Of a stretch of 64,000 nucleotides of DNA, positions 7,084 through 61,037 are shown in pieces. The stretch comes from Bilabrum cf. latius. Taxonomy: Eukaryota. The position numbers and the translations under genes are program-made. The stretch covers positions 2,294,001-2,358,000 of the forward strand of contig OZ237735.1 of NCBI GenBank assembly GCA_965178125.1, given 5' to 3'. Position 1 is the first letter of the stretch. The number at the start of each line of letters is the position of its first letter. Under the pieces are notes generated by a model. That model was given only the letters and a program-made list of their open reading frames with translations. It ran no database searches and was not told the DNA's origin.

Positions 7084-7122
<39 letters not shown>

Positions 7123-38918: not shown

Positions 38919-40253
38919 ATGGCGGCAGCAGCAGCCGAACCTACAGGTGATGGCGCCAAGTCTGGATCGGTACCGCAAGTCACGATGGACTCGGCGGATC
39001 CGACCCTGCTGAGCACATCCATGCTATCCGAGGTGACTGGGTTTGCCGAAAGCGATATTAAACAGGAAGTAGAATCGATGTCTGGAGCAGGGGGTCTGAG
39101 CGGAGAAATGCGCCGGTACAAGGTGTCCAAGAAGGGCGACAGCGCCGACCCGTTGACGTTTGTTCTCAAGACGACTCACACCGGGCGAGAGAGCGGTTCC
39201 AAGGCGCTGGGACTCATGAGAGAGGCCCAATTTTACGAGTTCATGACGCAAGGATCCGGTCTGGACTTCACCATCCCCAAGGTGCTCGCCGTATCGTACG
39301 ATGTGGACGCCGGGACCAAGCACATCCTGATGGAAGATCTGTCTTCCTGCGTCCAATCCGGGCAGCTCTTCGGCCCTGGTAGCCCTTTGAATTGGGGCAA
39401 AGATCTAGATGCCGCCGCGGCGAAGTGCAAGGGCATCACCCCGATGCGCGTCGCCGGCGCCGCGTTCATCAACGCGGCCCGACTCCACGGCAAGTACTGG
39501 ATGGACGCCAAACTGACCGACACCAAGTGGCTGCGAGGAGCAAGATGGCCCCTGGGCGAAGGCAAGGAGGCGTGGGAGGCCAGCCAGGCGAGCGTGGTGG
39601 GCGCTTGGAAGAAGCACAAGGAGGACGTCTTGTCAAAGGGGGAGCAGGGGTGGTGGAGCCCCGAGATTGTCGCCCTGTTCGACGCCTCTGTGAGCAAGGT
39701 CTCGTGGGAGTCGCACTGCGATAGGTACAAGAAGAATCCCTGGACGCTCGTGCACGGAGATTTCCACCCGGCCAACATGATGATCCGCACTGAAGGCGAT
39801 GGGGCCGAGGACGCCGCTGCCGAGGCCGACGCAGGCGGCGCCGGCAGTGAAGCCGCTGCTACTGCGGATGCCGTGCTGGAGCAGGCTCGCGCGGACGCTC
39901 ACCGCGTGGTGATGCTCGACTTCGAGGTGGTCGGTCTGGGCTCCGGCCCGCAGGACCTGGGCCAGTACATGATCTCTCATGTGGAGCCAGATCTCCGGCG
40001 CAAGCACGAGGATGCCTTGCTCGGGGCATACCATGCAGAGCTTGTGGCGCACGGTGTGGACGGGAAGGCCTTTACTCTGGAGGACTGCAAGCGCGAGTAC
40101 GCGTTTGGGGCGGCGGAGCGCTGGGTCTGGCTACTGGGCTACATGACGGGCATGTGCCCCGAGCCCGTGAACCGCTTCCTCCATGACCAAGTGCTTGCGT
40201 TCGTAAAGGACCACGGTGTGACCCCTGAAAGCATCGGGCAGCCGAGGTCGTGA
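38919..40253 (+). CDS. Ecdysteroid-kinase/aminoglycoside-phosphotransferase/choline-kinase-like protein (444 aa)
   Basis: Intact ORF with FVLK, REAQFY, ILMEDLS, TLVHGDFHPANMM (Brenner motif) and LDFE...GPQDL; ends TGA; contains no TAG. Confidence 0.88.
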   Translation: MAAAAAEPTGDGAKSGSVPQVTMDSADPTLLSTSMLSEVTGFAESDIKQEVESMSGAGGLSGEMRRYKVSKKGDSADPLTFVLKTTHTGRESGSKALGLMREAQFYEFMTQGSGLDFTIPKVLAVSYDVDAGTKHILMEDLSSCVQSGQLFGPGSPLNWGKDLDAAAAKCKGITPMRVAGAAFINAARLHGKYWMDAKLTDTKWLRGARWPLGEGKEAWEASQASVVGAWKKHKEDVLSKGEQGWWSPEIVALFDASVSKVSWESHCDRYKKNPWTLVHGDFHPANMMIRTEGDGAEDAAAEADAGGAGSEAAATADAVLEQARADAHRVVMLDFEVVGLGSGPQDLGQYMISHVEPDLRRKHEDALLGAYHAELVAHGVDGKAFTLEDCKREYAFGAAERWVWLLGYMTGMCPEPVNRFLHDQVLAFVKDHGVTPESIGQPRS

Positions 40254-40257
40254 ATCC

Positions 40258-40315
40258 AGAGGTGTGTTGCGAGGGTCATTTGATTTAGAGGTGTGTTGCG
40301 AGGGTCATTGGATTT
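40258..40315. repeat. 29-bp tandem duplication in the 3' intergenic space between convergent genes
   Basis: agaggtgtgttgcgagggtcatt(t/g)gattt x2. Confidence 0.85.
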
Positions 40316-40427
40316 AGGTTGCGCGCTCATGCTCTGCTCTATTGAGCGGTGTTGATTGCAAGGACCCATGCACCTCTGTCGGTGCACGCACCCGATCCGG
40401 GAAATCATCTATACATCGATAGTACAG

Positions 40428-41701
40428 TCATACCACGCGCTTCTCGTCGCGGCTGAAGAGCACCTCCTTGTTTTTTTCCTTGTCCTTGCGTTGGCCTTCG
40501 TCTTTGCTGCTGCGTGTGCTTCGCTCATTGTCGGCACCAGCCCCGTCGGACCCACGGTGATGCCTCCGCCGGCTGCTCCTGTCTTCGTCATCCTCATCAC
40601 GGTGATGCCTCCGCCGGCTGCTCCTGTCTTCGTCATCCTCATCACGGTGATGCCTCCGCCGGCTGCTCCTGTCTTCGTCATCCTCATCACGGTGATGCCT
40701 CCGCCGGCTGCTCCTGTCTTCGTCATCCTCATCACGGCGATGCCTCCGCCTAGTATGCCCACGATCACGTCGCCTGCTTCCGTGACCCGATTCTCTCCTT
40801 CGCCTGCGCCTATCGCAGTCTTCATCATCCTTGCTACCAACGCTCCGACTCCGGCGGTGGTGCCTATCCCTGTCCCTTCTGCTGCTGCTCCTGTGTCCCT
40901 CCCGCCTGCTCCTGCTAGACCTCCCACCCCCACTTCTGCGACCGTCTCTGCGCCTACTGCTGTGCCTGTGTCTCCTTCCCGAGTCCCTAGAGCGTCTTGG
41001 CGACCTTGATCTAGACCTGGACTCGTCCCTTGATGCCTCTGAATCGCTAGAGGAGGCAATATCCACCTCTGCGTCGGCGTCTTCGTACCTTGGACGCTGT
41101 GCTCGCATTCCACCGCCTGACGGTTCCTCCGCCCTCCCCGGCCTCGACGAATCAGCCGCGCCACTGCTTCCACTGGCTGATAATGGGGGTCTTCCAGGAA
41201 GGGCGCCAAGCTACGCAAGCTCGGCTCCAAGCGGTAAGGAGGCGAGCGGATCAGCGGCACCTGCTCCAGGTTTCAAGGCCAAGGGCTCAAGTGCCGCTGC
41301 AGGATCGTGACCCATAGCGAGGGAAGCTTCGAGGCTAACCCTATGTCGGCCTTTACTGAGGCCAGGCAGTGCAGTCATTTTGGACAAATTCCCGGCCTGC
41401 GATCGATGAAAGGAATCGTAAATAGCAGCGTGGCTTCGTGCGAGGCTGCCGTAATCGGTACGCGCAAGGCACGCTGAATGAATAAACCCACCTTTTTATT
41501 CATCTTAACTCGCTCCATTAGTTCCAACGATTGCTGTTGGAGGTCAGCCGATGGTGATCCATCCGCCCCCTCGGCGTCGCCTTCGCCCTTGTACGGATCG
41601 TGACCAATCGTATCTTTCCAGATTCCGTGCGTCTTTAGCGAGCCAGATGTCATCATTCTATTGTTGTGAGGCATCTTAACCCGCCCAGCGGTGGCTGGCA
41701 T
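40428..41701 (-). CDS. CXIP4: CAX-interacting protein 4 (CXIP4)-like RS/RH-rich nuclear protein (~392 aa); intron 41397-41491
   Basis: N-terminus MPATAGRVKMPHNNRMMTSGSLKTHGIWKDTIGHDPY closely matches the remembered CXIP4 N-terminus (MPATAGRVRMPANNRVHSSAALQTHGIWQSAIGYDPY). Intron GTGGGT..TCGCAG (95 nt); one in-frame TAG (~41211); Arg/Ser/His-rich tail; ends TGA at 40428. Confidence 0.82.
40553..40750. repeat. 45-bp coding minisatellite (~4.4 copies) encoding RRRHHRDEDDEDRSS in the CXIP4-like gene
   Basis: Unit cacggtgatgcctccgccggctgctcctgtcttcgtcatcctcat repeated head to tail. Confidence 0.92.
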
Positions 41702-42793: not shown

Positions 42794-43922
42794 CCGAATC
42801 AGGGCGGGCGATAGCACCTCCAGCGCGGCTGGCAGCATAGAGGCTGGGCAGCGAGATGCCAGCAAACGCAGTGAAAGCGCAAGGGCTGTAGGTAGCAATA
42901 GTGGTGGTACCTGGCACGCAGGTACAGGGGGTACAGACAGCGACGGCGACGAGGAGTGCGGCATGATCCTGAAACCGAGACCAGACAACGCCCCCGGAAA
43001 CTCCTCCTCCTCGTCATCGTCTGCCCCTGCAGTTGCGTTGCCCTCTTCCTCTTCTCAGCAACACGTGCAAGTCTCTAGCCAAGGTGCTGCCGGCCAGCAG
43101 CAGCAGGTCATGAGCCCGAGGTCCAGGTTCCAGTCGAGCTTGCCGGCAGTGGCAGAGACGGACGGGTCGGACGCGGGAACGGAGGACGACGTGGATTTCG
43201 GCTCCGAGTCGGGCACGCCCATTCCGGTCGCTGCGACCATCCCGGGAGCGGTGGGGGCGGCTGGAGGTCCCATGGAACGATCTGTGCCGGCATCGCACGG
43301 GTCCCCACAGTCGCAACCTCAGCAGCCTCAACCGCCTCGATCGCGGGGGCCGGGAGCGGCCGGCGGTAGCGGAAGCCTCACTGGAGACCAGGTGCAGGCG
43401 CAGGTACCGCCGCCCCCGCCAGTCCCAGCAGCAGGCCCATCGAGCGGGAGGGTCGTGCCTCCGCCTGCACCGTCCCAGGCCCCGCCTGCGCCACCGCTTG
43501 CATCCACGGTTGGCAAGTCCGGTGGCGGCCTGCCACCGCCCCCTCCGCCACCGCTGGCATCGTCCACAGCTACTTCATCTGTTTCTTAGGATGGCCCGAT
43601 CCGCAGGGGCAGCGTAGCTGACGCTCTCGCCCGCCGGGGTTCCGTTGGTGCCGCCTCTGTGCTCCGCAGGTCCTCCATGGCAGCAGCACAATCGACAGAA
43701 GCCGGCGCCGGTCAGGCGGGTGCGCCCAGTGGCACTGCCGGCGGAAGGGTGACCAGCGGCCCGCGCATCAGGCGGTCCACGGTTGCCTCCAAGAAGCCGA
43801 GTGCCCCGAGGGAAGCGGTGCGCCGTGCCATTCAAAAGGCTGCAACTGGTCCCGTCTAGGTCAGCGAGGATGCGGCTGCTGCTGCTGCGGCCATTGCGGG
43901 CGGTGCGCTGGGGGGCAGGTGA
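41820..43922 (+). CDS. PH-domain protein (PLEKHD1-like PH, coiled coil, proline-rich tail; ~700 aa)
   Basis: *LSGNLWKCRTSGDSSWKRRFFVLKDGFLLYYPEQ...FHPRGVLPLDGC...DRERWLVALENS is a PH domain. In-frame TAG at 41913, 42342, 42666, 43587, 43857; ends TGA 43920-43922; poly-Pro tracts. Confidence 0.85.
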
Positions 43923-44229
43923 TGCCTCGCGAGAGTGAGTGAGTGAGTGAGCGTGGCTGCTCGCTGCGGTGCTGTGCACTTGAGGTGTAGTGGCGCGCCC
44001 CAGGCCCGGCTGGCTAGCTTGTCTATCTTCCAGGCGAGTGCCAATCGGATGGTTGACGGGCCTGCCTTGTTGGTGCCGGTCCCAAGGTTTCTTCGCAGGT
44101 ACTATTGTATATCTATTGATAATGATGCCACTTCCAATTGCATCGTGAAACTACAATCCGGATTCCATTGCAACACCCAGCAAGCACGCCCTCAATGCCC
44201 CCCCCCCCTCCCCCCCCCCACTCGGTCAG

Positions 44230-45367
44230 TCACCGGAACATGCTGGAACCCGCGCCGAGCGTCGTGGACGCCGCAGATCCCTGCCCTAGCCCAGAGCCAC
44301 CATCACCCAACGAACCGCCCACTCCACCCGCACCCTCACCCGCCGCGGCGCCAGATCTCCAGCCCCGGATCCCGATCTTCTCTTGCTTGGCCTGTGCCAC
44401 GGCTGCGACGGCCCCCCGCCCGTCAGGCACACGCCGCGCGCTTCCCCTCAGGCTAACAACGGAGCCGCTCGCTCTGCCACTGCCGCCAGCACTGCCCGTC
44501 GTGCGGGGAGAAGCCCCTGCCCCTGCCCCTGCCCCTGCCCCAGGTCCTGCCAGTGGGGCCCCGCCCGATGCGGTGCCCGATCCGCTCATCATGACTTCCA
44601 CGAACGATTCGTAGTTGAACAGCCCGTTGGCATCCACGTCCAGCTGCCCCACGAGCTCCTCCGCCTCTGCTTCGTCCAGCACATCCGCGCCGTAGGTCGA
44701 CAGCGCCTGCACGAGGTCTGAAATCCGAATGTGACCAGAGGGAGACGTGCCTTCAAATACCGCAAAGCTGCGAGCCATGCAATCCATGACACAAAGACCG
44801 GTGGCGAAACGCTGCCCGCTTCAGGTTGCACAAGATATGAGGGGCAAACCCAAGCTCCAGTGCCTAAATCGCTCACCTCTTCTTGACCGCATCCGGGGTG
44901 TATGTTGCGCTCACTTTGCGCGACATCACCTAGCAGAACTCTCCAAAATCGATTTCTCCATTCGAATCTTCACTGCGGATGTAAACTAATGCTAGTCGTG
45001 CTGCATGTGGCTGCCATTGATCTCCCTTCATCCGCCCCAGTTCATCAGATGACTCACTCAATCTCCGCCAGCATGTCCCGGACTTCCTTCTCAGTCGTGG
45101 TAATACCCAGAGTTGTCATTAAGGACAGAAGCTGCGGAAACAGATGCCGAGGACAGCTGTACATTGACCAAGTGCAACCGCACCCGGACCTGCGTGATCG
45201 ATCCATTCAGGGCATTGAAATACCCTCACCTCCTCGGCGTCAATAGTGCCTCCCCCATCCTTATCCACGAGACTAAAGATTTCTCTGAACTCCCGTATCT
45301 CGGCATCAGTCAGGTGCCTGAATGCATCAACCTCCGACCCCGTTTTCGAGCTGCTAGAGCTTGACAT
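44230..45367 (-). CDS. Calmodulin/centrin-like four-EF-hand protein with Gly/Ala tail, copy 1 (~281 aa); introns 45132-45229, 44973-45057, 44768-44876
   Basis: Spliced translation: LTDAEIREFREIFSLVDKDGGGTIDAEE|LLSLMTTLGITTTEKEVRDMLAEID|EDSNGEIDFGEFC*VMSRK...VKKS|FAVFEG...LDVDANGLFNYESFVEVMM. All introns GTGAG..CGCAG; TAG at 44930; ends TGA. Confidence 0.9.
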
Positions 45368-45907
45368 TCGTTGATAAAGCCGCCGCCAGTACAACAGAAA
45401 TGTATATCGACTGCCAAGTGTAGTCCCGGAATCAAAGGAATCAGCCACGAATACCTGTCGATGCGTCAGCCCTGCATTTCAACAAACGGAACTCTTCCAG
45501 CCTGCTGAGCGGCGCCGCTGGCAGTGCAAGCGGTCGCAGGAGCCGGTCGCAATTCTCCAATCATCTGAGTCGGTGCAGCCACAAACAGCTATCGGTGTAT
45601 AGTAAGCTGAACCGCAGCAGCGCGAAGACGTGGCGGCCATGGCGCGGTATGTGCACCAGGCCCTGACCGCAGTGCTGGCGTGGCGGAGGCCGCGGTGCGG
45701 GCTTATTGCAGCGGGGGCCGGGCCACCGCCGTGCTGCAGGCGAGCGTGAAGGCTCTGCCGGGCATAGGTACATGTCATCGTGCCAAAGCGAGCATGATGG
45801 AGCAAGGGAGGTATGTTCGGGACATCTGGTCCTGACAATCAAAGCTACATGCAGCGTGCACAATCCAATAGCAAGCGCCGAGCCATTTGCTGGAGAATAT
45901 TGAAGAA

Positions 45908-47209
45908 TCAATGGCAACCTCGCACATGCCTCCTGAGATCGCCTGCCACACCGAATGACTTGCCGCACACCAAGCACTCGTGCTTGCGCTCGCCCAGATG
46001 CACTGTGGACAGGTGCGTCCTGAGATGGCCTGCCTCCCCGAATGACTTGCCGCACACCACGCACTCATGCTTGCGCTCGCCATGATGCACAGTGGACATG
46101 TGCCTCCTGAGATGGCCTGCCTCCCCGAATGACTTGCCGCACACACTGCACTCGTGCTTGCGCTCGCCATGATGCACAGTGGACATGTGCCTCCTGAGTG
46201 AGCCTGCCCGCCCGAATGACTTGCCGCACACCATGCACTCGTGCTTGCGCTCGCCCAGATGCACTGTGGACATGTGCGTCCTGAGATGGCCTGCCCGCCC
46301 GAATGACTTCCCGCACACCAAGCACTCGTGCTTGCGCTCGCCATGATGCACTGTGGACAGGTGCCTCCTGAGATCGCCTGCCTCCCCGAATGACTTGCCG
46401 CACACACTGCACTCGTGCTTGCGCTCGCCCAGATGCACAGTGGACATGTGCCTCCTGAGGTTTCCTGCCTCCCCGAATGACTTGCCGCACTCCATGCACT
46501 CGTGCTTGCGCTCGCCCAGATGCACAGTGGACAGGTGCCTCCTGAGGTTTCCTGCCTCCCCGAATGACTTGCCACACTCCATGCACTCGTGCTTGCGCTC
46601 GCCCAGATGCACCACGGACGTGTGCGTCCTGAGATCGCCTGCCCGCCCGAATGACTTCCCGCACACACTGCACTCGTGCTTGCGCTCGCCCAGATGCACA
46701 GTGGACAGGTGCGTCCTGAGATTGCCTGCCCGCCCGAATGACTTGCCGCACACCATGCACCGATGTCCTGCCTCGCCTCTGCCTGCCTGTCCCCGCCGTC
46801 TCTTCGCCCTCGATCCGCTCTAGCTGTCTGCTGACCTCGCCTCTGCCTGCCTGCCTCGCTTCTGGCCCAAAGAGGCATCCGTGCCGCCGCCTGCAGCTAC
46901 CCCTGAGCCCGACTGCATTGACGATTCTACTTCTTGCGGCAACATTGCGCTGCTGCTGGACTGTCCCGACGCCACGATGGACGTGGGAACAGCTTCGGCT
47001 CGATCGCTGGCTGGATCTCGGACCCTACCTTTCCCATCTGCGTCTCGCCTGCCCCACTAGCGACTGCTGGTCAATGATAGCGATGCAGCAATCCGGTTCA
47101 TGTGACGGGCGGGAACCTCGACATCGCTTCCACCAGCGTCGCTGTCGCTCGAGTCGCTGCTGACGAGATCGATCACCTCCCCTGAGCATGCACCTGCTGC
47201 TTGCTCCAT
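45908..47209 (-). CDS. C2H2 zinc-finger array protein, copy 1 (10 fingers, ~433 aa)
   Basis: MEQAAGACSGEVIDLVSSDSSDSD (SIM-like), in-frame TAG at 47057 and 46820, then 10 x CxxCGKSFGxAGxLRxHxSxVH in 84-bp units; ends TGA. Confidence 0.9.
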
Positions 47210-47581
47210 GGCTGCCTGGCAGTATCTATATCCAATATTGAATGCTGACACGTTAACAGCCAGGTGGCTGCCGACCACAGAATGACAGGGAATACGAGCT
47301 TTCCTATCCTACGCCCTTTCCTGGTGTACCTTCGACGGCCAGGTCTGATTGGCTCCAACGCAACCCTGTATATAGAAAGGCTATACTTGGGGGATGCCAC
47401 AGCCGAAACAGTAGCGAGGAAAATGACAAGGAGACGGTGAGATCGATCCTTGTCGGTCCGATTGAGGCTGTTTTCATCTTCACAACTTCAAGGTGCTGGG
47501 CCTGGCGTGGCGGCCACGCTCACTTGGAACACCAGCTTCACAGGAAGCAAACAGGCCACGCACAACCCACCACATCCCTCC

Positions 47582-48169
47582 TCACGGAGAAGCACCGTTC
47601 TCGCTCGCTGCCCCTCCTTCGCCAGACGCCTTCTCCACCCTCTCCCTGCGCGCCTGCTGCTGCTTCTGCTGCTGCACCACAGCCCGCTTCTCCCTCCACG
47701 CCTTGCCCTTGATCCGGGCCTCGTCGGACCGCTTCAGCTAGGCCGCCAGCGCGTCCACGGAGAAGGCCTCCTTGAAGTCCATCGCCATCGACGAGGAATC
47801 CACACCCCCGGAGCCCCTCGACGATCCGCCGCTGCCGCTCCCCCCCCCCTTCTGCCCCCCCCCCCCCTCCTCGGGGATGTCCTCCCCAGTCGCGATGGCC
47901 TGCATGGCAGACATCCACCCGCCCCCAGACCGCAGGTCACCGGACCACCACGCCAGGAACTCCGCCTTGGAGATCATCCTGTCCCTGTTCTTGTCCATCT
48001 CCATGATGGCGGCCTCCAGCTCCGCGTGGCTCAGCTTGCTGCCCAGCTGCACGCACAGGTCGGCCAGCTCGGTCGTGTCCAGATCGCCGCTGCCGTCGAG
48101 GTCCGCAGCATCGAGTGTCGATGTGGGCGAGGAGGAGGAGGAGGCTGCTGCTGCTGCTGCTGCGGCCAT
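47582..48169 (-). other. Chimeric ORF at the duplication junction (195 aa): new poly-Ala/Ser N-terminus fused to the duplicated EF-hand C-terminus; new gene or truncated relic
   Basis: MAAAAAAAASSSSSPTSTL comes from the antisense PH-gene tail plus the junction, then DAADLDGSGDLDTTEL... matches the parent gene. One TAG (47738) where the parent has CAG; ends at the homologous TGA (47582). Confidence 0.55.
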
Positions 48170-48496
48170 TGCGGGCGGTGCGCTGGGTGGCAGGTAATGC
48201 CTCGCGAGAGTGAGGGAGTGAGTGAGTGAGTGTGGCTGCTCGCTGCGGTGCTGTACGCTTGAGGTGTAGTGGCGCGCCCCAGGCCCGGCTGGCTAGCTTG
48301 TCTTTCTTCCAGGCGAGTGCCAATCGGATGGTTGACGGGCCTTCCTGGCGGTGCCGGTCCCAAGGTTTCGTCGCAGGTACTATTGTATATCTATTGATAA
48401 TGATGCCACTTCCAATTGCATCGTGAAACTACAATCCCATTACAACACCCAGCAAGCACGCCCTCAATGCCCCCCCCTTCCCCCCCCATCGGTCAG

Positions 48497-49640
48497 TCAC
48501 CGGAACATGCTGGAACCCGCGCAGAGCCTCGTGGATGCCGCAGACCCCTGCCCCAGCCCAGAGCCACCATCACCCACGGAACCGCCCACTCCACCCGCAC
48601 CCGCACCCGCACCCGCCGCGGCGCCAGATCTCCAGCCCCGGATCCCGATCTTCTCTTGCTTGGCCTGTGCCACGGCTGCGACGGCCCCCCGCCCGTCAGG
48701 CACACGCCGCGCGCTTCCCCTCAGGCTAACAACGGAGCCGCTCGCTCTGCCACTGCCGCCAGCACTGCCCGTCGTGCGGGGAGAAGCCCCTGCCCCTGCC
48801 CCTGCCCCTGCCCCAGGTCCTGCCAGTGGGGCCCCGCCCGATGCGGTGCCCGATCCGCTCATCATGACTTCCACGAACGATTCGTAGTTGAACAGCCCGT
48901 TGGCATCCACGTCCAGCTGCCCCACGAGCTCCTCCGCCTCTGCTTCGTCCAGCACATCCGCGCCGTAGGTCGACAGCGCCTTCACGAGGTCTGAAATCCG
49001 AATGTGACCAGAGGGAGACGTGCCTTCAAATACCGCAAAGCTGCGAGCCATGCAATCCATGACACAAAGACCGGTGGCGAAACGCTGCCCGCTTCAGGTT
49101 GCACAAGATATGAGGGGCAAACCCAAGCTCCAGTGCCTAAATCGCTCACCTCTTCTTGACCGCATCCGGGGTGTATGTTGCGCTCACTTTGCGCGACATC
49201 ACCTAGCAGAACTCTCCAAAATCGATTTCTCCATTCGAATCTTCACTGCGGATGTAAACTAATGCTAGTCGTGCTGCATGTGGCTGCCATTGATCTCCCT
49301 TCATCCGCCCCAGTTCATCAGATGACTCACTCAATCTCCGCCAGCATGTCCCGGACTTCCTTCTCAGTCGTGGTAATACCCAGAGTTGTCATTAAGGACA
49401 GAAGCTGCGGAAACAGATGCCGAGGACAGCTGTACATTGACCAAGTGCAACCGCACCCGGACCTGCGTGATCGATCCATTCAGGGCATTGAAATACCCTC
49501 ACCTCCTCGGCGTCAATAGTGCCTCCCCCATCCTTATCCACGAGACTAAAGATTTCTCTGAACTCCCGTATCTCGGCATCAGTCAGGTGCCTGAATGCAT
49601 CAACCTCCGACCCCGTTTTCGAGCTGCTAGAGCTTGACAT
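48497..49640 (-). CDS. Calmodulin/centrin-like four-EF-hand protein, copy 2
   Basis: Near-identical to 44230-45367, including the three introns; one Q>K change (LVKALS) and small differences in the tail; ends TGA. Confidence 0.9.
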
Positions 49641-50203
49641 TCGTTGATAAAGCCGCCGCCAGTACAACAGAAATGTGTATCTGCTGCCAAGTGTAGTCCC
49701 GGAATCAAAGGAATCAGCCACGAATACCTGTCGATGCGTCAGCCCTGCATTTCAACAAACGGAACTCTTCCAGCCTGCTGAGCGGCGCCGCTGGTACTAC
49801 TAGTAGTGCAAGCGGTCGCAGGAGCCGGTCGCAATTCTCCAATCATCTGAGTCATTGCAGCCACAAACAGCTATCAGTGTTTACAACGCTGAACAGCAGC
49901 AGTGCGAAGACGGGGCTGCCATGGCGCGGAATGTGCACCAGGCCCTGACCGCAGTGCTGGCGGTGCGGGGAGGCCGTGGTTGAGGCGGCGATGCGGGCTT
50001 ATTGCAACGGGGACTGGGCCTCCACCGTGCTGCAGGCGAGCGTGAAGGCCCTGCCGGGCATAGGTACATGTCATCGTGCCAAAGCGAGCATGATGGAGCA
50101 AGGGAGGTATGTTCGGGACATCTGGTCCTGACAATCAAAGCTACATGCAGCGTGCACAATCCAATAGCAAGCGCCGAGCCATTTGCTGGAGAATATTGAA
50201 GAA

Positions 50204-51334
50204 TCAATGGCAAACTCGCACATGCCTCCTGAGATCGCCTGCCACACCGAATGACTTGCCGCACACCAAGCACTCGTGCTTGCGCTCGCCCAGATGCACT
50301 GTGGACATGTGCGTCCTGAGATGGCCTGCCTCCCCGAATGACTTGCCGCACACCACGCACTCATGCTTGCGCTCGCCATGATGCACAGTGGACATATGCC
50401 TCCTGAGTGAGCCTGCCCGCCCGAATGACTTGCCGCACACACTGCACTCGTGCTTGCGCTCGCCCAGATGCACAGTGGACAGGTGCCTCCTGAGTGAGCC
50501 CGCATGCCCGAATGACTTGCCGCACACACTGCACTCGTGCTTGCGCTCGCCCAGATGCACAGTGGACAGGTGCCTCCTGAGATTGCCTGCCTGCCCGAAT
50601 GACTTGCCGCACACACTGCACTCGTGCTTGCGCTCGCCATGATGCACAGTGGACATGTGCCTCCTGAGATTGCCTGCCACACCGAATGACTTGTCGCACA
50701 CTATGCACTCATGCTTGCGCTCGCCATGATGCACCACGGACATGTGCCTCCTGAGATTGCTTGCCACACCGAATGACTTGCCGCACACACTGCACTCGGG
50801 CTTGCGCTCGCCCAGATGCACAGTGGACATGTGCCTCCTGAGGTTTCCTGCCCGCCCGAATGACTTGCCGCACACCATGCACCGATGTCCTGCCCCGATT
50901 CTGCCTGCCTGTCCACGCCGTCTCTTCGCCCTCGATCCGCTCTGGCTGTCTGCTGACCTCGCCTCTGCCTGCCTGCTTCGCTTCTGGCCCAAAGAGGCAT
51001 CCGTGCCGCCGCCTGCATCTACCCCTGAGCTTGACTGCATTGATGGTTCTACTTCTTGCGGCAACATTGCGCTGCTGCTGGAGTGTCCCGACGCCGCCAC
51101 GATGCACGTGGGAACAGCTTCGGCTCGATCGCTGGCTGGATCTCGGGCCCTACCTTTCCCATCTGCGTCTCGCCTGCCCCACTAGCGACTGCTGGTCAAT
51201 GATAGCGATGCAGCAATCGAGGTCATGTGACGGGCGGGAACCTCGACATCGCATCCACCAGCGTCGCTGTCGCTTGAGTCGCTGCTGACGAGATCGATCA
51301 CCTCCCCTGAGCATGCACCTGCTGCTTGCTCCAT
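50204..51334 (-). CDS. C2H2 zinc-finger array protein, copy 2 (8 fingers, ~376 aa)
   Basis: Paralog of 45908-47209; TAG at 51182; 8 x 84-bp finger units; ends TGA. Confidence 0.9.
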
Positions 51335-51707
51335 GGCTGCCTGGCAGTATCTATATCCAATACTGAATGCTGATTCGTAAACAGCCAGGTGGCTGCCGAC
51401 TGTAGAATGACAGGGAATACGAGCTTTCCTATGCACGACCTTTTCTGGTGTACCTGTTCGACGGCCAGGTCTGCTTCGCTCCAACGCAACCCTGAATCTA
51501 AAAAGGCTATACTTGGGGGATGCCACAGCCGAAACAGTAGCGAGGAAAATGACAAGGAGACGGTGAGATCGATCCTTGTTGGTCCGGTTCCGGCTGTTTT
51601 CATCTTCACAACTTCAAGGTGCTGGGCCTGGCGTGGCGGCCACGCTCACTTGGAACACCAGCTTCACAGGAAGCAAACAGGCCACGCGCAACCCACCACA
51701 TCCCTCC

Positions 51708-54029
51708 TCACGGAGAAGCACCGTTCTCGCTCGCTGCCCCTCCTTCGCCAGACGCCTTCTCCACCCTCTCCCTGCGCGCCTGCTGCTGCTTCTGCTGCTG
51801 CACCACAGCCCGCTTCTCCCTCCACGCCTTGCCCTTGATCCGGGCCTCGTCGGACCGCTTCAGCTGGGCCGCCAGCGCGTCCACGGAGAAGGCCTCCTTG
51901 AAGTCCATCGCCATCGACGAGGAATCCACACCCCCGGAGCCCCTCGACGATCCGCCGCTGCCGCTCCCCCCCTCCTTCTGCCCCCCCCCCTCCTCGGGGA
52001 TGTCCTCCCCAGTCGCGATGGCCTGCATGGCAGACATCCACCCGCCCCCAGACCGCAGGTCACCGGACCACCACGCCAGGAACTCCGCCTTGGAGATCAT
52101 CCTGTCCCTGTTCTTGTCCATCTCCATGATGGCGGCCTCCAGCTCCGCGTGGCTCAGCTTGCTGCCCAGCTGCACGCACAGGTCGGCCAGCTCGGTCGTG
52201 TCCAGATCGCCGCTGCCGTCGAGGTCCGCGGCATCGAATGCCTCCGCGGCCTCTGCCTCTGTTGCCACGCTGGACTTGAGCTGGACAAAATGGTACATGG
52301 CGCAGCAGCTGGTGACCCAGTTGGCCACGGCGAGCACCATGAGACCGAGGCCGACGACGATGTTGAGGATCTGGGAGGCGCTCCACTGGGCCAGGCAGAG
52401 GGAGCCCACCAAGAACATGAGGTGACCTCGTCCACTGACCGTGGTGAAGATCGGCATGTATTTCTCCACCGCTCGACGTAGGAACATGCCGCAAAACGCG
52501 GTTCTTGCCTCGGTGATGGCGATGAGGATCCCAAACCACATGATCCACCCGTTCAAAACCACAAACACGATCGTCCTGCCCTTTGTTTTCTTGGCGTCGG
52601 CGAAATTGATGAAAATTCCGATAAAGGCCGAGAGGATCGCACAGACTCCGAACAGGAAGGAAAGCACCCGAATCCCGCAGGGGCCCTCTGCCACCCACCC
52701 GCCGAGTTCGCGCATCTGTCCCCACACCGCGGCGGAAACAGACGAGGTAGCGATCTCCATCTGAGCCTCTTCCATGGACTTCGGTTCCACCTCGCGGAGA
52801 TCTTCGAGGTCTCGCACGGCCTTGGCGGCCATGGCTGCATCCCGGCGGGGGGGAGGGGTCGAGGCCACGAGTGGCTGGGTGGGGCTGTCAGCAGCAGCAG
52901 CAGCAGCAGCAGCCCCCGCGGCAGCTCCGCCGCCTGCTGCGCCGTAGGATCCAGATGCCGCGCCGCCGCCTTTCTTTTCCTTGAAGCTTCGGTGCGCGGT
53001 TCGAAGCTTGGCGGCCATTTGAAGCGCCGAAGCGAACTCGCCCGCGCCCGCACCCATGCCCATGCCCATGCCCATCGCGTCGGCTCCATCGGCTCCGGGG
53101 GCGCGCGGGGCCGAGGCTCCCTGCAGCGGGTTCTTGGTCGATGATCCCTTGGAGTCGCTGTATACCCCTACGGTGTCAGTGTCTGGGCCGCTGTCCCCGC
53201 CAGCGGCAGCGGCTCCTTTCGCTTCAAGCTGATCCTTCTTGGGCTTCGGTGGAGGCACCTGCCCCCCGTTCTCGATGATTTTATCCTCCAAAATGCGCTG
53301 CCGCGTCGCCTTAACTGCTGGGGGGAGGAGACTGAAGGCGAGTTTAGCCTTCTGCTCCGGCGAGATGCCGTCGATCATCTCGAGGACGAGGCGAGCATGC
53401 CGCCGGATCTTGGCGGGCAGCCTCGACAAAACTCGCTGCTTGTTGGCTCGTGGGATGGTGTCGTAGATTTCGGCTGCCCCGCGAATATCCAGCTCGAGAG
53501 CACACATGATAAGCTGTTCGACCGAATCTGCGGACAAATCGATGTCGTCGTTCACCTCGAAGGCAAGACGCACGAGGGGTGGCAGGCGTCTCTTGACGTC
53601 CCAGCGGAGGTCTTCCGGCATGCTGTGGTACAGCCGGTAGACGTGCACCGCAGCTTCGATTGGATCATTCTATTTAAAGGCGTCCTCAACATGCCGAATC
53701 GCACTCGAGCTGATTATCGGCTCTCCCTTGGGGCCTCGAGCACTGAGTACCTTTCGTACAAGATCTTGATCCAGGTGTTGAAGCCCACCCAATGCCTCCT
53801 TTGCGTCATCCGGTAGATCTCCCAAGTCTTTGAGGAGACCCGACGCTACCAATTGCACAACGTCAGCCATCCCTTCTGCTGACGCCTCCCGGTGCACCGT
53901 AGGAGGAGATTCTTCATCAGACGAGTCCTGCTCGTACACAGCAGAATCAAGGCGTTTTGCCGGCTTTGTTCCGCCATATTTCTCGCTATTCGATTCGCGC
54001 CTCTTGATTGGCTGGGGTCCGAGCTACAT
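51708..54029 (-). CDS. Membrane protein with a COPI-associated/TVP15-like 4-TM block and a C-terminal EF-hand pair (~773 aa)
   Basis: Hydrophobic helices RVLSFLFGVCAILSAFIGIF, VFVVLNGWIMWFGILIAITE, PIFTTVSGRGHLMFLVGSLCL, ILNIVVGLGLMVLAV; EF-hands DLDGSGDLDTTE and DKNRDRMISKAE. Extended upstream through TAG 53670 to ATG-TAG at 54029; ends TGA. Confidence 0.75.
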
Positions 54030-54139
54030 GCCCGATCCAAGACAGATATAGAAGTGGCACCACGAGCCGCGCCGCCGCCGGGGTCCAAAGCCCCGAGTGC
54101 AGTGCACTCGTCGTCTTCACATCCACTTTCGGGCAATCA

Positions 54140-56176
54140 ATGAAGGCCGCCAGCGAGAAACTTCCTAAAGAATTGTCAGGAACCATGCAGCTCAAGCCAC
54201 AACGTGCGGCATCACAAGCATCGCGAGAAATCAATGTCAAACTCGAAGCCGACGCGAGTGATAGCGCTCCGCCGGCCTTGCAAGTCGATGGCAGAGATGT
54301 TATACGGGTTATGCTGTAGTTTTTGCGAGAAAATTCCCTAAATGAGTCACTTCGCACTCTTCAAGACGAGACTGGGGTCCCTTTGGATGCGGTAGATTCG
54401 CTTGCAGACCTGCGCAGCCTGGTCCTTGCCGGACGATGGGACGCGGTCCTGACCCAGCTAAGTGAAATGTCGTTGCCCCCTGATGTAGTCATGCTCGCGT
54501 ATGAACAGGCTACCCGAGAGATGCTCGAGCTTCGGGAGGCAGACACGGCTCTGGCACTGTTGAAATCAGCCGTACCCCTGCGGCTCATGCGTGGCTTGCA
54601 ACCTGGCCGGTACGCAAGGCTAGAATCGCTTGTGCGCCGTGGTGCGTCCTCTATCCAAGAGCTGTACCCGGCTGGAGCCACCCGTGCGACTCGGAGAGAC
54701 GAAGTCGCGACGGCCATCGAGGAGCACGTGCGCGAAGTCCCGCGGGGACGCCTGCTCGCCGCGCTCGGCGACGCCCTCCGTTGGCGACGAAGGGCAGGGC
54801 TTCTCCCCGCTGGAATGGGATCCCGTCTCGACGTATTCAGTGGAACTGTCCCGCGGCGTCGCGACGCAGAGGAGCTGCCGGCCAGTCGCCGGGCCGGCGT
54901 GGTCCGCTTCGCCAAGGGGACGCGCGCCCTGGCGGCCTGCATGTCCCCGATTGGAGACGCGCTCGTGACCGGCAACTCGGACGGATTCGTGGAGGTCTAC
55001 GACCCGGAATCGGGATCTCTTCGCATGGATTTGGAGTACCAGGAGAGGGACGAGGTGATGGCCCACGAGAGCCCCGTGCTGTGCCTAGACGTCAGCGAGG
55101 ACGGGGAGCTCGTAGCCGCGGGAGACAAGAACGGGGACGTGCGCGTCTGGAGGATCGTCAGCGGCAAGTGCCTGCGCCGGTTCCCGAAGGTGCATCCCGG
55201 CGGTGTGACGAGTGTCGCGATCTCGCGCGACTCGTCCAGGGTGCTGGCAGGCGGCTTTTCCGGGGCCGTCAGGGTGCTGGGCATGCGATCCGGGAAGCAG
55301 GTCAGAGAGCTCCAGGGCCACACGGCGTTTGTCAATAGCGTGCAGTTTTCCGCTGACGGGTCGTTCTGCCTGACTGCGAGCAGCGACGGGACAGCCAGGA
55401 AATGGAACTCTGCCACTGGAGAGGCCGTCCAGGTGCTGCGGCCACCCTCTGCCAGCGCGACTGCGGAAATCGCGGTCGTGTCTGCGCTGTTTGTGCCCAG
55501 GCGGGGCGGCCTTGACGAAGGGGCGCCTGGAAGCGTTGCCGCGGCAAGTGGCAGCCAGGCGGCCGGAATGCCATCGTCATCCACGTCCGCCGCGTCGAAA
55601 TCTAATGCGGGCGGCAGCGTGCTGGTGTGTCCCCGCGGCCCGGCCGCGTTCGTGCTGGGCTCAGGCGGCGAGGTGAAGTCAACCCTGCGGCCTGGACCAC
55701 TTCTCAACGAGCAAAAAGGCAGCAGCGGTGCAGGAGGGGGGAGCAAGCGGTCGACGGCAGCTTCGTCCTCCTCGTCCTCATCTTCCTCGTCTGCCGCGCC
55801 ACCCACCCTTCGAGACGCCTCCGAAGCGGCGCGTGATGCCTCGCTACACCTGGCAGCGGCTGCGGTAGGCCCACAGGGAAGGCTTGCGTACCTGTTCGCA
55901 GATGATGGGGGCATGTACGTGCTGGACATAGCGAGTGGCAAGCAGCTGGCAGCGGTGCAAGCCGCGGGCGAGGGCGCGGAGCCTCTGGGCCTGTCGCACC
56001 ACCCGCACAGGAACCTAGTGGCTAGCTACGCGACGGAGAACAGGGTCAGGCTGTGGCAGCAGGACAAGAAGGCAGCCAAGGCGCGGGTCAAGTCCGGAGC
56101 AGTGGGAGTGGGTGCTGCCGCTTCTGGGGCGGGGCATAGTCACGGGGGGAGTGTGCCCAGCGTGCCGATGTCTTGA
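54140..56176 (+). CDS. SMU1: WD40-repeat spliceosomal protein SMU1 (LisH/CTLH + WD40; ~678 aa; alternative start 54185)
   Basis: DVIRVML*FLRENSL...TLQDETGV.L..VDS...GRWDAVL, YEQ...EMLELRE, VPRGRLLAALGDALRW, LVTGNSDGFVEVYD...G.LR.DL.YQ, GKCLRRF..H..GVTSV, GHTAFVN, HHPHRNLVASY. TAG at 54317 aligns with the conserved Gln of SMU1 LIMQYLKENSL; ends TGA. Confidence 0.95.
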
Positions 56177-56224
56177 GTAGATCCCATTAGTGAAATCGAG
56201 CAAAGCTGGTGTGTTCAATCTCCC

Positions 56225-58912
56225 TTAGTTTGGTCGCCGTGACTTCCAGTACCTTCGGCGTATTTCCTTCATAGTGTACCCCTTCCCGCCGTCACGCTTC
56301 AAGTGTTCAATCCACGCATTTTTCGCGCGTCTTCTTTGGCGTCTTGGAGCTGCCGGACCAGCCGGTGAGCCATGCCCGCCCATGTCCATAGGAGCGCCGC
56401 CGCCACCCCCGCCGCCACCACCCATCATCGCGCTCATCATCATCATCTGCTGCATTTGCTACATCTGCTGCATCTGCGCCGCCGCTGCCTGCTGCGCCTG
56501 CTCCTGGGCCCTCCGTGACTCTTCCCGGATTTCTCGAATGGTCTGCTCTTGGTCTGCTTTAATCTTCTCTACGGCCTCCTCTGCCTTGGTGACCTGCTGC
56601 CTGCACTCCTCCGCCTTCTGCTTCTCTTGCTCGAGCTCAGCCTCGGTGCGCTAACGCTGGGATGCGTTGTCCTCGGCACGCTGCAGCTGGCACAGTGCGG
56701 ACTGTGCCTTCGCATGGAGCTGCTCCACGTCGGCCTTCAGTCGGGCTTGCTCCACGGCGACCGGATCGCGAGCATCGGCGCCGCTTGAGGTCCAGGACTG
56801 TACGATCGCGACCAGATCGGAGCGTCGAGCCCCCACTCCGAACTGAGCCCGTGCCTCCTCGAGCGGTGCTCCGCAAGCCGCGGCTCCAAGCACTTCAGCA
56901 GGCCTCGCTTCTAGTGCCGAGCCCGACGAGAGGGTGGCACCAGCGCCCGACGAGGCCTGCGTGGCAGGCGCTCGCACCGGTGTCGGGTCTCCAGCGGCAC
57001 CGCCCGAGCCCTTGCCTCCCGACTCAGACGAAGACGATGGATCCCCTGCGCCAGCCACAGTCTCGCGAAGCACCGTTGCGAACCGCTCTGCAGCAGCACA
57101 TGCCTCGCCGCTGCCCTCCCTCCTGAACGCCTCCTCAATCCTTTGAACCGCCTCGCCTGCCCAGTCCGACTCGAGGTGCTGCGCAAAATCGTCCCTCAGG
57201 GCTTGCTCGAGCCGGCCACTCCCGCTCATTGCCTCGCGAATGCGCTCCCCGAGCCTGACTCGCGCCTGGGCGGCTTGCTCCGAGGTGCCCTCCGCACCTG
57301 CGATGGCGTCGTCATTGGGAACGCTGTCGCGCAGCCGAACGTAGGCATCGTTCTCTAGCGCGACTCTACGCGCATCAAGCAATGCCGCGAGCATGCTCTG
57401 CGAAAGGCTTTGCCTCGCCTCGGCTGCCTTGGCGCGTATGCGAGCGAGGAGGCTCTCACGCACCGCCTCACATGTCGAGTCGCACAGCTTGCGGGCTGCG
57501 TCCGGCAGCTCGCTGATGGACACGCAGGCCTCTTCGGCCGCAGCTCTGATTATCTCCGATTGCATCATGTCCCGGAGGATCGCCAACAGCCGATCAACTG
57601 CGGCTGGAGACTGCAAAGAAGCCACGAGTTCGGCCGTTGAGCTGCCCTCTTCGGCCTGGCACCCCTCCAGCACAGCGCTGTGAAGGAATTGCGCGTGTGA
57701 GACGGCAACACCGGTCGCGTGGGTCTGCAGCTGCTCCCGCAAGGAGGTCCCATTGATGATCCCGATATCTATCGAGGCGTTGGCTTGCTCTGCGAGCGTC
57801 TTGATCGCGGGGAGCACGCTGCTCGGGACGCACGGCAGACTCGGGTCACCCATGAGGTGCCCAGCGCCGGTCCTTGCAGACAGCTCCTTCCCAGCAATAT
57901 TCTCCAGCATCGTGTCGAGGGCTGTCCGGAGGTTTGTTTGCTGTTCCGGAGGCACCTGGCCGGACCGGGGATCCACGGACAAGGCGGGTACGTGCGCGAG
58001 CTCGCATCGCCTGAAGCAATCTTTCAAGCTTTTCCTCTGCTTGTTTCTTGCCTCGATGTCTCTCTTGGCAGCACGGGTTCCAGATTCAGGCTCCATGCCA
58101 AACACTGTCTCACATAGCTCTCGCTTGTCTGCATCAGTCACCAACAAGTTGCACATGAGCTGCGCTACGCACAGCGTGCCGCTCAAACCGCTCGTCGCCT
58201 GGCCTCGATGGGCCTGAGATCCGGCTGCTTCACCCTCCGCCTGCTCACTGGCGCTGTCCAGGATGATTTCGCTCGTTTCTACGATGTGTGCGACCATTTT
58301 GAGCGCGCTATCACGCGTGATTGCATCTCTCTAGGCGAACAAGAGGGCCCCGCGTGCGGTGAGCAGCAGCGCTGGCAGCACGGTGCGGGTGTCCTGGCTG
58401 GCAGCCTCAGCACCTGATCCTTCGCAATCGATGACCAGCACCGCAGATTCATGGGGCTGCCCGAATGCTCCTGCCGGCAGGTGGATGAAAACCCCGTCGG
58501 CGCCCTTCGTACACGGCTGGGGCTGGTCTGAGGTGACGAACAGGTCCGGGACACGCTTCCCGGAGATTTTGCAGTGTACAAACCTGACTTCGCCGCCGCC
58601 AATCATCTGTGGTTTTGGTGCGGGCGTTTCGAAGGCGTTCTGCACGATCCAGTCGACTGCGTAGTTCATCGTGGTGCTTTTGCCACCTCTCGCGGGTCCG
58701 TTGATCGCGATTGTCGTCAGGGGGGCACCCCCTGGCAGATCTCGTAGTATTCGCTAGATGCCTTCCTCATCAGGAATGCCTATCTGCGGTGCACGATCGG
58801 CAGGTGTTGCGGCTGTCACGCGCCACAGCGGCACGACGCCGGAGAGTTTGATCGCCTGTCTGCAGCCGGAGCCACTGGCAGGACCTTCCGATCCTCCTCT
58901 TCTTGATGCCAT
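56225..58912 (-). CDS. Guanylate-binding-protein/atlastin-like P-loop GTPase with a helical/coiled-coil C-terminus (~895 aa)
   Basis: TIAINGPARGGKSTTMN (G1), FVTSDQPQPCTKG (G2), VLVIDCEGSG (G3). Fragments joined through TAG at 58754, 58331, 56651, 56459; ends TAA at 56225. Confidence 0.82.
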
Positions 58913-59364
58913 CGTGTGTTTCTGCGTGAATGGTGCAGCGTGAGCGAACAGTATGGCGTGTCTCAAGAACGCGCGAACAGCAACACCAACGCTTCCAGAA
59001 CGAATGAGTGCCAATTTTAGACTTGGATTAGCCATACCGCTGTCGCAGTCCAACATCGAGGATGAAAATGTGCACGCAAATAGATACCAAATGCCCCAAC
59101 TCACTAACTTTGGCAAATTTCTTGCAGTGAGTGTACCAGGTGTAACTTGTAGTAATAGTCGCGGGAACGAACGAACGATCTTAATTTTCATGAAATTGCC
59201 ACCTCGCGCGCGGCCCTAGTCGCGGGAACGAACGGAACCATCCATGGATCGGTGCCGCCGCGCGTTCATTTGCGGAACCCACCTAACCACGAGATGAGCC
59301 GCAGGGCTGCCAGTCAATCCTTTAGGTATCAAGCAACGTTAAATACCAGCGCTGGCGTATAGCT

Positions 59365-60609
59365 ATGGAAGGCGATGAATTCAACAACGCGGGAGAGGTG
59401 ATCGATCTCGTCAGCCACGACTCAAGCGAGAGCGACAGCGATGTCGAGGCTCCCGACAAGCACAACAACACAAGGTTTGCTGCATCAAATTCAGCGACTA
59501 CCAGCGTCTAGTGGGGCTCTCCAGACGCATGTCTGAATGGCAGGGCCCGCGGTCCAGCTAGCGATCGAGAAGAAGCTGCCAGTGGGGCCGTCGATCAGAC
59601 TCAAGCTAGTCCTGTGTCCACCGTGCCATCAGTACAATCCAGCAGCAGCACAGTATCACAGCAGGTGGTACAATCAGCAATGCAGTTAAGCTTAGGAGCA
59701 GCTGCAGGTGATACTAGCCATTCCTCGCTGGGGCAGAAGCGGGGAAGGCGGGCAGAGGTTCGCCATCTAGATAATTTCAAGAGGGGAGCGAGGGCAGGGA
59801 AGAAGCGGCGGAAGGAGGCACATACAAACGCGATAGAATTCGAATGCGAGGTATGCGGTAAGGTGCTGGGCTCAATGAAAGGCTTGCGGCAGCATGTGTC
59901 GGTGGTGCACCTGGGCGAGCGCAAGCACGAGTGCATGGTGTGCGGCAAGTCATTCGGTGTGGCAGGCTCACTCAGGAGGCACATGTCCATTGTGCATCTG
60001 GGCGAGCGCAAGCACGAGTGCATGGTGTGCGGCAAGTCATTCGGGCAAGCAGGCGATCTCAGGACGCACATGTCCACTGTGCATCTGGGCGAGCGCAAGC
60101 ACGAGTGCAGTGTGTGCGGCAAGTCATTCGGTGTGGCAGGCTCACTCAGGACGCACATGTCCACTGTGCATCTGGGCGAGCGCAAGCACGAGTGCAGTGT
60201 GTGCGGCAAGTCATTCGGGCAGGCAGGCTCACTCAGGAGGCACATGTCCACTGTGCATCTGGGCGAGCGCAAGCACGAGTGCATGGAGTGCGGCAAGTCA
60301 TTCGGTGTGGCAGGCTCACTCAGGAGGCACATGTCCACTGTGCATCTGGGCGAGCGCAAGCACGAGTGCAGTGTGTGCGGCAAGTCATTCGGTGTGGCAG
60401 GCTCACTCAGGACGCACATGTCCATTGTGCATCTGGGCGAGCGCAAGCACGAGTGCATGGTGTGCGGCAAGTCATTCGGGCAGGCAGGCTCACTCAGGAC
60501 GCACATGTCCATTGTGCATCTGGGCGAGCGCAAGCACGAGTGCATGGAGTGCGGCAAGTCATTCAATGTGGCAGGCTCACTCAGGACCCACATGAAACGA
60601 TGCAATTGA
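59365..60609 (+). CDS. C2H2 zinc-finger array protein, third (inverted, more diverged) paralog (9 fingers, ~414 aa)
   Basis: MEGDEFNNAGEVIDLVSHDSSESDSDVE N-terminus is homologous to copies 1 and 2; TAG at 59509; 84-bp finger repeats ~59839-60606; ends TGA. Confidence 0.9.
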
Positions 60610-61037
60610 TTCGTATGGATATACTAGAAAGCAGACATATTCCAGCCACGCCCCTTGGCTCAACTTCACATTCAATGCAATCACCGCTGTCCTTCTTTAT
60701 TTACTGGGGTTTACCCACGCTGGTGGCCCGACCTCGTCACCCACTGGCACCACCACCTTGCCACTGGCCTCGCCGCCCAGTGTATCCTTGTCAGCTCATG
60801 CCGTGGCCTCACCATGTTATCATTCAGCTAAGAATCATCCCAATAAGTGAAAGCTATGTCTCGGCAATTACTTGAATTCAAGAATTGCGACCTGCCAGGA
60901 GAGCTGCGACCACAGCTCGCACAACAATGCAACTGATGAAGCGATGAAGATTCATTCTGTTTAGTCATACCAGTCTATCCCAAAGTCTCCACAACATTGG
61001 CAGTGAACACTATAAAGCTAGTTCTGCTATCTATACC

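Follow-up and report, generated by a model that had tools for sequence, protein, structure and literature searches.

Only a handful of lineages are known in which the nuclear genetic code treats UAG differently from UAA. The fornicate Iotanema spirale is described as reading UAG as glutamine (Gln) and terminating at UAA and UGA, with in-frame UAG on conserved Gln positions, and a tRNA together with a changed eRF1 (GTS motif) has been reported for it (PMC5304391). The ciliates Hartmannula sinica, Trochilia petrani and Protocruzia tuzeti are likewise described as using UAG for Gln and UAA as a stop, and according to the same source this UAG-only Gln code has arisen several times independently (PMC11687900). 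That source also reasons that, because a suppressor tRNA with the anticodon CUA is not expected to read UAA, UAG can change alone. Both codons together (UAR, NCBI table 6) are listed there as encoding Gln in many ciliates, ulvophycean green algae, hexamitid diplomonads, Streblomastix and Amoeboaphelidium (PMC11687900), and code 15, in which TAG is Gln, is described from phages, for example crAss-like phages (PMC9523058). Here we analysed 64,000 nucleotides of the Bilabrum cf. latius assembly GCA_965178125.1 (contig OZ237735.1, positions 2,294,001 to 2,358,000; hereafter the window, in whose own numbering all positions are given), where TAG occurs in frame within genes and where two tandemly duplicated segments carry TAG in one copy and CAG in the other at homologous codons. 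Spliceosomal introns, an SMU1 gene, C2H2 arrays and WD40 genes identify the window as eukaryotic nuclear DNA. To judge from the sequence, it very probably belongs to a gene-dense eukaryote of about 60% GC in which UAG encodes Gln, UGA is the main stop codon and UAA a minor one.

When TAG was read as a sense codon, the number of stop-to-stop frames of at least 150 codons in the window increased from 144 under the standard code, the longest having 1195 codons, to 193, and the longest frames reached 3254, 2792, 2582 and 2021 codons. The same treatment of TAA left the maximum at 1195 codons, and reading TGA extended it to at most 1292. At the combined frequency of TGA and TAA triplets in the window (0.0147), the probability of a 3254-codon frame containing neither is about 1e-21. 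This longest frame (P0001; 13526-23290, minus strand) contains 27 TAG, ends at TGA and has a weak kinase-domain match. The 2792-codon frame (P0002; 23254-31632, minus strand) has 10 TAG and ends at TAA, the 2582-codon frame (P0003; 2-7747, minus strand) has 24 and runs off the window, and the 2021-codon frame (32546-38611, plus strand) has six, encodes EF-hand domains and ends at TGA; all four are free of internal TAA and TGA. Over 14 open reading frames (ORFs) comprising 17,349 codons, we counted 101 in-frame TAG (5.8 per 1000 codons), 491 CAG and 175 CAA. Pfam domains are present in many of the ORFs read with TAG as sense: sulfatase, EcKL kinase, PH, C2H2, EF-hand, WD40/LisH and WH2.

Two conserved alignment columns point to the amino acid. 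The SMU1 ortholog (54140-56176, plus strand; E 7e-105 to human SMU1) carries TAG at 54317-54319, and this column holds Gln in all 14 homologs that cover it (15 were aligned, one being gapped); Gln also stands there in human SMU1 and in the protein P0276. The sulfatase ORF (8822-10501, plus strand) contains six in-frame TAG. One of them, at residue 464 (10211-10213), is aligned with Gln in 14 of 18 rows, and the remaining four rows have one each of Glu, Met, Ser and Arg. At residue 136 (9227-9229), the only row covering the column, from a 97% identical relative, has Gln. The proteins of the closest relative (84-97% identity; P0005, P0285 and P0287-P0290, from Logan contigs) cover eight TAG sites of the window, six of which are Gln: the SMU1 site, sulfatase residue 136 and residues 1688, 2426, 2591 and 3144 of P0001. 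At least six Gln in eight such sites has P = 0.007 under a neutral one-step model that takes the transition bias of the tandem copies and the codon usage of the window. A more distant comparison was available from L001, a related metagenome contig with 59-67% protein identity to the window in the EF-hand and SMU1 genes. Three sites could be compared at a local identity of at least 0.6, and two of them pair TAG with a Gln codon: the SMU1 TAG of the window with CAG in L001, and a TAG at codon 2 of the L001 SMU1 gene with CAA in the window. TAG also keeps company with Gln codons, adjoining one in 18 of 98 cases, the figure for Gln codons being 72 of 654. It lies within a (CAG CAG ATG)n run at 56435-56485 (CAG ATG CAG CAG ATG TAG CAA ATG CAG CAG ATG) and in CAG CAG CAG TAG at 37004-37036. 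Taken together, these alignments show TAG inside genes, kept between paralogs and relatives, and, as far as sequence comparison can tell, standing for Gln. One further candidate for a conserved TAG, in the PH-domain gene of the window and L001, was rejected, as the alignment pairs the window TAG with GCG and the L001 TAG with CGT.

The other two stop codons appear to have kept their function. Thirteen ORFs have their end within the window, 11 at TGA and two at TAA, and all three complete ORFs of L001, which also has in-frame TAG, end at TGA. Neither codon occurs internally in the 17,349 codons; for TAA, about 35 internal occurrences would be expected if the ratio of TAA to CAA equalled that of TAG to CAG. 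C-termini common to the window and its near relative end at TGA in the window. Past the TAA of P0002, the only end that we profiled, GC content drops from about 0.7 to about 0.5, and the read-through past both TAA looks non-coding. We also considered TAA as a sense codon by following 160-codon extensions past the two TAA, and rejected it, since one extension lies antisense to the end of SMU1 and the other crosses a low-GC spacer. In this small sample of 64 kb, TAA thus appears to be kept as a stop and not used as sense.

The TAG/CAG differences between the duplicated segments had been put forward in an earlier note on this DNA as an internal control, that is, as synonymous changes pointing to Gln without any outside homolog. 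Re-reading the minus strand and aligning the copies globally bore out the codons and coordinates at both sites, and the frames 3' of both TAG do stay open. The duplication has a unit of about 4.27 kb and was recovered by self-BLAST as two matches, 43866-46586 against 48141-50882 at 94.8% and 46101-48114 against 50223-52237 at 94.0%. Unit 1 (43866-48114) includes the final 57 nt of the PH-domain gene, a calmodulin-like gene, copy 1 of the zinc-finger gene and a 3' fragment of an EF-hand gene. Unit 2 (48141-52237) has as its right end the genuine 3' end of the full-length EF-hand/COPI_assoc gene. At site 1, codon 130 of zinc-finger gene copy 1 is TAG (46820-46822, minus strand; RSADS-TAG-SGSRA), and the corresponding codon of copy 2 is CAG (50942-50944, minus strand; RSADS-Q-SGSRA). 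The forward letters at 46817-46828 are gctctagctgtc, whose reverse complement reads GAC AGC TAG AGC, and the counterpart in copy 2 is gctctggctgtc, with the codons GAC AGC CAG AGC. At site 2, the truncated EF-hand tail of unit 1 has TAG (47738-47740, minus strand; DALAA-TAG-LKRSD) and the full-length EF-hand gene of unit 2 has CAG (51864-51866, minus strand), so that 47735-47746 reads GCG GCC TAG CTG on the minus strand in unit 1 and GCG GCC CAG CTG in unit 2. Both sites are single A/G differences on the plus strand (46822/50944 and 47740/51866). Since the L001 ortholog has CAG at site 2, CAG is the older state there, and sequence comparison shows the change to run from CAG to TAG, inside the fragment.

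If UAG is Gln, both differences, the one at site 1 presumably in the same direction as that at site 2, would be C-to-T transitions by which CAG, the common codon for Gln, became TAG, a minor one, and would be silent in the protein. UAG would then be read by a tRNA-Gln with the anticodon CUA, and eRF1 would no longer recognise UAG, both as proposed for Iotanema spirale. This mechanism follows the published description of such codes, in which a CUA tRNA-Gln that reads UAG and not UAA is combined with a change in eRF1 (PMC5304391, PMC9161772, PMC11687900).

Several observations weigh against UAG being Gln, or lessen the force of the evidence for it. Within the 64-kb window we found no tRNA gene and no Rfam match, and hence no tRNA-Gln(CUA), and eRF1 is not among the genes of the window. 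In the sulfatase, the alignment columns of the TAG at residues 27, 291, 479 and 541 are variable and contain a mixture of residues. The two remaining sites covered by the closest relative, sulfatase residue 291 and P0001 residue 3122, are Glu. The third L001 site pairs a window TAG in the EF-hand gene with the Gly codon GGA, at a local identity of 0.6, and the other 16 sites compared with L001 lie in poorly aligned or low-complexity sequence. The partners found in variable columns of the sulfatase and L001 alignments (Ala, Lys, Gly, Ser, Met and Thr) are uninformative. The relatives' proteins were apparently called under the standard code, which makes any TAG shared with the window invisible, and delimiting ORFs by TAA and TGA means that a terminating TAG would go unseen. 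As a control, the two swaps themselves carry less than had been claimed. Under the neutral model, the one-step partner of TAG is CAG with a probability of 0.274 (GAG 0.217, AAG 0.147, TGG 0.115, TCG 0.115), and two CAG partners out of two have P = 0.075. Around site 1, the 148 codons that can be aligned 5' of the first finger show 14 non-synonymous and five synonymous differences between copies 1 and 2 when TAG is counted as Gln (pN 0.042, pS 0.045, ratio 0.93), from which it follows that almost any exchange would be tolerated there. Site 2 lies in a truncated fragment, and the change is therefore probably neutral whatever TAG means. At 3-5% divergence, moreover, an open frame 3' of TAG is expected even in a young pseudogene.

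In the light of these points, the swaps are compatible with TAG being Gln and yet do not establish it; by themselves they are weak evidence. The earlier note thus reached the right conclusion from evidence weaker than it stated. Its description as duplicated genes holds for site 1, which lies in two zinc-finger genes, and not for site 2, whose partner in unit 1 is a truncated fragment. The swaps do fit a synonymous change, although the exchange at site 1, in a nearly neutral region, cannot be called demonstrably silent. The statement that no outside homolog is needed fails, as the case is carried by outside homologs and by the window-wide frames. Paralog swaps of this kind are a useful hint, and selection on both copies should be checked before they are used as a control. 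A better internal control, absent from the earlier list, appears to be the TAG found at a homologous codon in all three zinc-finger paralogs (SSR-TAG-WG; 47057-47059 and 51182-51184 on the minus strand, 59509-59511 on the plus strand), which from sequence we regard as the best available.

The alternatives that survive best concern the exact meaning of TAG. It could be a sense codon for another amino acid, Glu being the best candidate, or be ambiguous between Gln and Glu, which we regard as quite improbable. UAG is described as Glu in a ciliate and in Blastocrithidia (PMC10553269, PMC12153298), and in our data the two Glu among the eight closest-relative sites and the single sulfatase homolog with Glu at residue 464 would fit such an assignment. 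Both Glu sites, however, lie in locally diverged stretches, and Gln is found in 14 of 14 and 14 of 18 rows at the two conserved columns. Even though GAG is used more often (658 compared with 485), Gln stands at six of the eight sites covered by the near relative, and TAG clusters with Gln runs, as described above.

About as improbable is a dual, context-dependent meaning, with TAG as Gln inside genes and as a stop where some of them end; such a duality is known from some ciliates and, for UAA, from Blastocrithidia. Terminating TAG would escape ORFs defined by TAA and TGA, and in L001 a TAG directly follows the conserved C-terminus of SMU1 (...RLWV-TAG), where most homologs end. Nevertheless, the SMU1 tail past this conserved end is kept, and lacks TAG, in the window and in its 94% identical relative, and the L001 tail beyond the TAG resembles the window tail in length and make-up. 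P0001 and its relative also end at the same place, which in the window is a TGA.

A standard code in which the two TAG are nonsense mutations of a decaying pseudogene pair in unit 1 is highly improbable. Both TAG do lie in unit 1, one of them in the truncated fragment and the other in a region with a pN/pS of 0.93, and CAG to TAG is the likeliest one-step route to the nonsense codon (0.274 in the model above). Such decay would leave unexplained the 101 in-frame TAG in 14 ORFs, among them the conserved Gln sites of SMU1 and the sulfatase, the in-frame TAG of zinc-finger copy 2 and of the third paralog, and the frames of 2000-3250 codons that appear only when TAG is read. Nor does the unit core look like a target of repeat-induced point mutation, which we also considered and rejected together with a pseudogene pair: the global alignment contains 143 substitutions (66 transitions and 77 transversions) of all 12 types, with no C-to-T excess. 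Neither zinc-finger coding sequence, both copies having been examined, contains a TGA, TAA or frameshift, and zinc-finger copy 1 is probably functional. The least probable alternative, a standard code with U-to-C editing that turns UAG into CAG in the messenger, would likewise put Gln at TAG sites, but it should rescue TAA and TGA as well, neither of which is internal in the 17,349 codons, and a contig of run X7, which is only guessed to be RNA, covers 54143-54422 with no changed letter and the TAG at 54317-54319 intact.

UAG as Gln therefore remains our preferred reading, and we return to the genes of the duplicated region in which the swaps were noticed. The unit begins within the last 19 codons of the PH-domain gene (stop codon at 43920-43922) and ends within the EF-hand/COPI_assoc gene. 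Zinc-finger gene copy 1 (45908-47209, minus strand) has 434 codons including the TGA, encodes 10 C2H2 fingers (Pfam zf-C2H2, E 1e-50) and carries TAG at codons 51 and 130. Copy 2 (50204-51334, minus strand) has 377 codons including the TGA, eight fingers and TAG at codon 51. The third paralog (59365-60609, plus strand) has TAG at codon 49, and its N-terminus is 56% identical to that of copy 1 (96 of 172 aligned residues). The full-length gene for an EF-hand/COPI_assoc membrane protein (51708-54029, minus strand), recognised by the Pfam domains EF-hand_7 and COPI_assoc and by its ortholog in L001, has TAG at codon 2 and at ORF residue 149 and ends at TGA. Its truncated duplicate (47582-48114, minus strand) comprises the last 177 codons and the stop and lacks the promoter of the parent and its N-terminus of 600-odd residues. 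As the duplication cut the EF-hand gene and only the unit 2 tail is joined to the rest, the tail in unit 1 is a fragment and not a second gene copy.

A calmodulin/centrin-like EF-hand gene is present in each unit (44150-45700, minus strand, with its copy at about 48430-49980). It contains GT-AG introns of 98 nt (45229-45132) and 85 nt (45057-44973) and probably a third; contigs of the runs X5 and X7 skip the 98- and 85-nt introns precisely (CT..AC on the plus strand), so that run X7 holds an intron-less junction of this gene. Divergence between the units is uneven, with a single substitution in the 1067 bases of 44337-45403, which cover the calmodulin-like gene and its introns, and four in 47466-48114, compared with 3-5% over the rest of the unit. 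Such unevenness indicates gene conversion, as the near identity of the calmodulin-like copies suggests, or unequal age. Joints that skip about 4250 nt (43891 to 48143) were considered as a sign of a duplication-free haplotype and rejected, because their sides are only 20-24 letters long and lie in GCT-repeat sequence. Among the listed Logan contigs of four runs, none spans 46820-46822 or 47738-47740, and contigs from near-identical copies cross-map.

Some other features of the window concern the use of TAG or the make-up of its genes. In the window EF-hand gene, TAG directly follows the start codon (ATG TAG CTC; 54027-54029, minus strand), and in the L001 SMU1 gene it is the second codon, at about 4535-4537 (M-TAG-VDSRD). 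Ala, Ser and Gly are abundant in the giant ORFs at 2-7747 and 23254-31632. A zinc-ribbon match of 20 residues is the sole Pfam hit in one of them, and the other lacks any Pfam domain. Scoring 8000 candidates of 1420-4519 residues against the 2582-residue P0003 gave no homolog at E <= 0.001. A protein with WH2 motifs (60948-63848, plus strand) contains the block GGLLAEIRGGARLKKAKTVVKGNKLPG...MMAQILAARQKMAGGG twice as well as long (PA)n and (RP)n runs, and has seven in-frame TAG, several of them within PRPQ-type repeats. At 40508-40777 a 45-nt unit is present in five tandem copies, of which three are 100% identical; the array sits in overlapping open frames of both strands (39977-41272, minus; 40356-41009, plus).

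As to the lineage, the best named relative of the SMU1 protein is an Emiliania huxleyi cluster, at 43% identity, and that of the sulfatase the diplonemid Flectonema neradi, at 40%. The window, its 94% identical relative and L001 formed a 100/100 clade in an SMU1 tree of 20 rows, which included no fornicate or ciliate; this clade stood outside the other 17, on a branch of 1.26 changes per column, in agreement with a lineage that is, on this sequence evidence, fast-evolving. Relatives of the window are present in several public assemblies. In L001 (1-8614), the PH, EF-hand, SMU1 and WH2 genes follow one another on one strand, with no zinc-finger genes and no duplication, and both are therefore particular to the window lineage. 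Relative to L001, the corresponding part of the window (41760-63848) has the EF-hand gene inverted and carries further genes in between: the three for zinc-finger proteins, the two calmodulin-like ones and a P-loop (GTPase-like) gene of 1000 codons. It seems that the zinc-finger family is both expanding and moving.

Contigs of the runs X5 and X7, which are guessed to be RNA, start 2, 3, 5 and 9 nt 5' of the ATG of the SMU1, PH, EF-hand and GTPase-like genes (at 54138, 41817, 54034 and 58921, respectively), and contigs end 7 and 18 nt past two stop codons. Run X1, which is likely DNA, is continuous across these genes (52927-59101). These positions hint at almost leaderless messengers, bearing in mind that contig ends cannot prove RNA ends. 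Almost leaderless messengers are known from Giardia and other metamonads.

On a broader and more tentative view, which we hold to be possible and place somewhat below an even chance, the window would represent an undescribed fast-evolving lineage with at least three sampled members (60-97% protein identity) that independently acquired the rare UAG-only Gln code, is rich in GC, uses TGA as its main stop and may make almost leaderless messengers. If so, this would be a further independent origin of the code outside the ciliates and Iotanema, and capture of UAG would not require the AT-rich background, dominated by UAA, that is found in the known cases. In a full-text search of the literature, which did not extend to supplementary tables, we found no report of UAG as Gln in a GC-rich eukaryote outside ciliates and fornicates. 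A GC-rich genome in which TGA is the main stop offers a test of the idea that a rarely used stop is free for capture and the preferred one stays fixed. There is also a practical side, in that gene callers using the standard code cut the genes of this organism at every TAG; in the relatives' public proteins, the giant gene is found as pieces of 540, 369, 180 and 182 residues.

Set against the described systems, the code deduced from the genes of the window is that of Iotanema and a few ciliates, with UAG as Gln and UAA and UGA as stops. The UAR codes resemble the window in that a stop was recoded to Gln through the one-step neighbourhood of CAG and TAG; a UAR code was nonetheless rejected for the window itself, where no TAA is internal and two ORFs end at TAA. 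Phage code 15 assigns the same codon to the same amino acid, but in phage genomes, whereas the window is eukaryotic nuclear DNA. The three ciliates with UAG as Gln are described as preferring UAA as a stop, and differ in this from the window, with its dominant TGA, 60% GC, GT-AG introns of 85-98 nt and giant low-complexity genes. Iotanema spirale, as described, is like the window in that only UAG is reassigned, to Gln, UAA and UGA terminate and in-frame UAG falls on conserved Gln, while the two differ in stop usage: UAA ends 104 and UGA 15 of 119 genes reported for I. spirale (PMC5304391), and in the window, at about 60% GC, TGA ends 11 and TAA two of 13.

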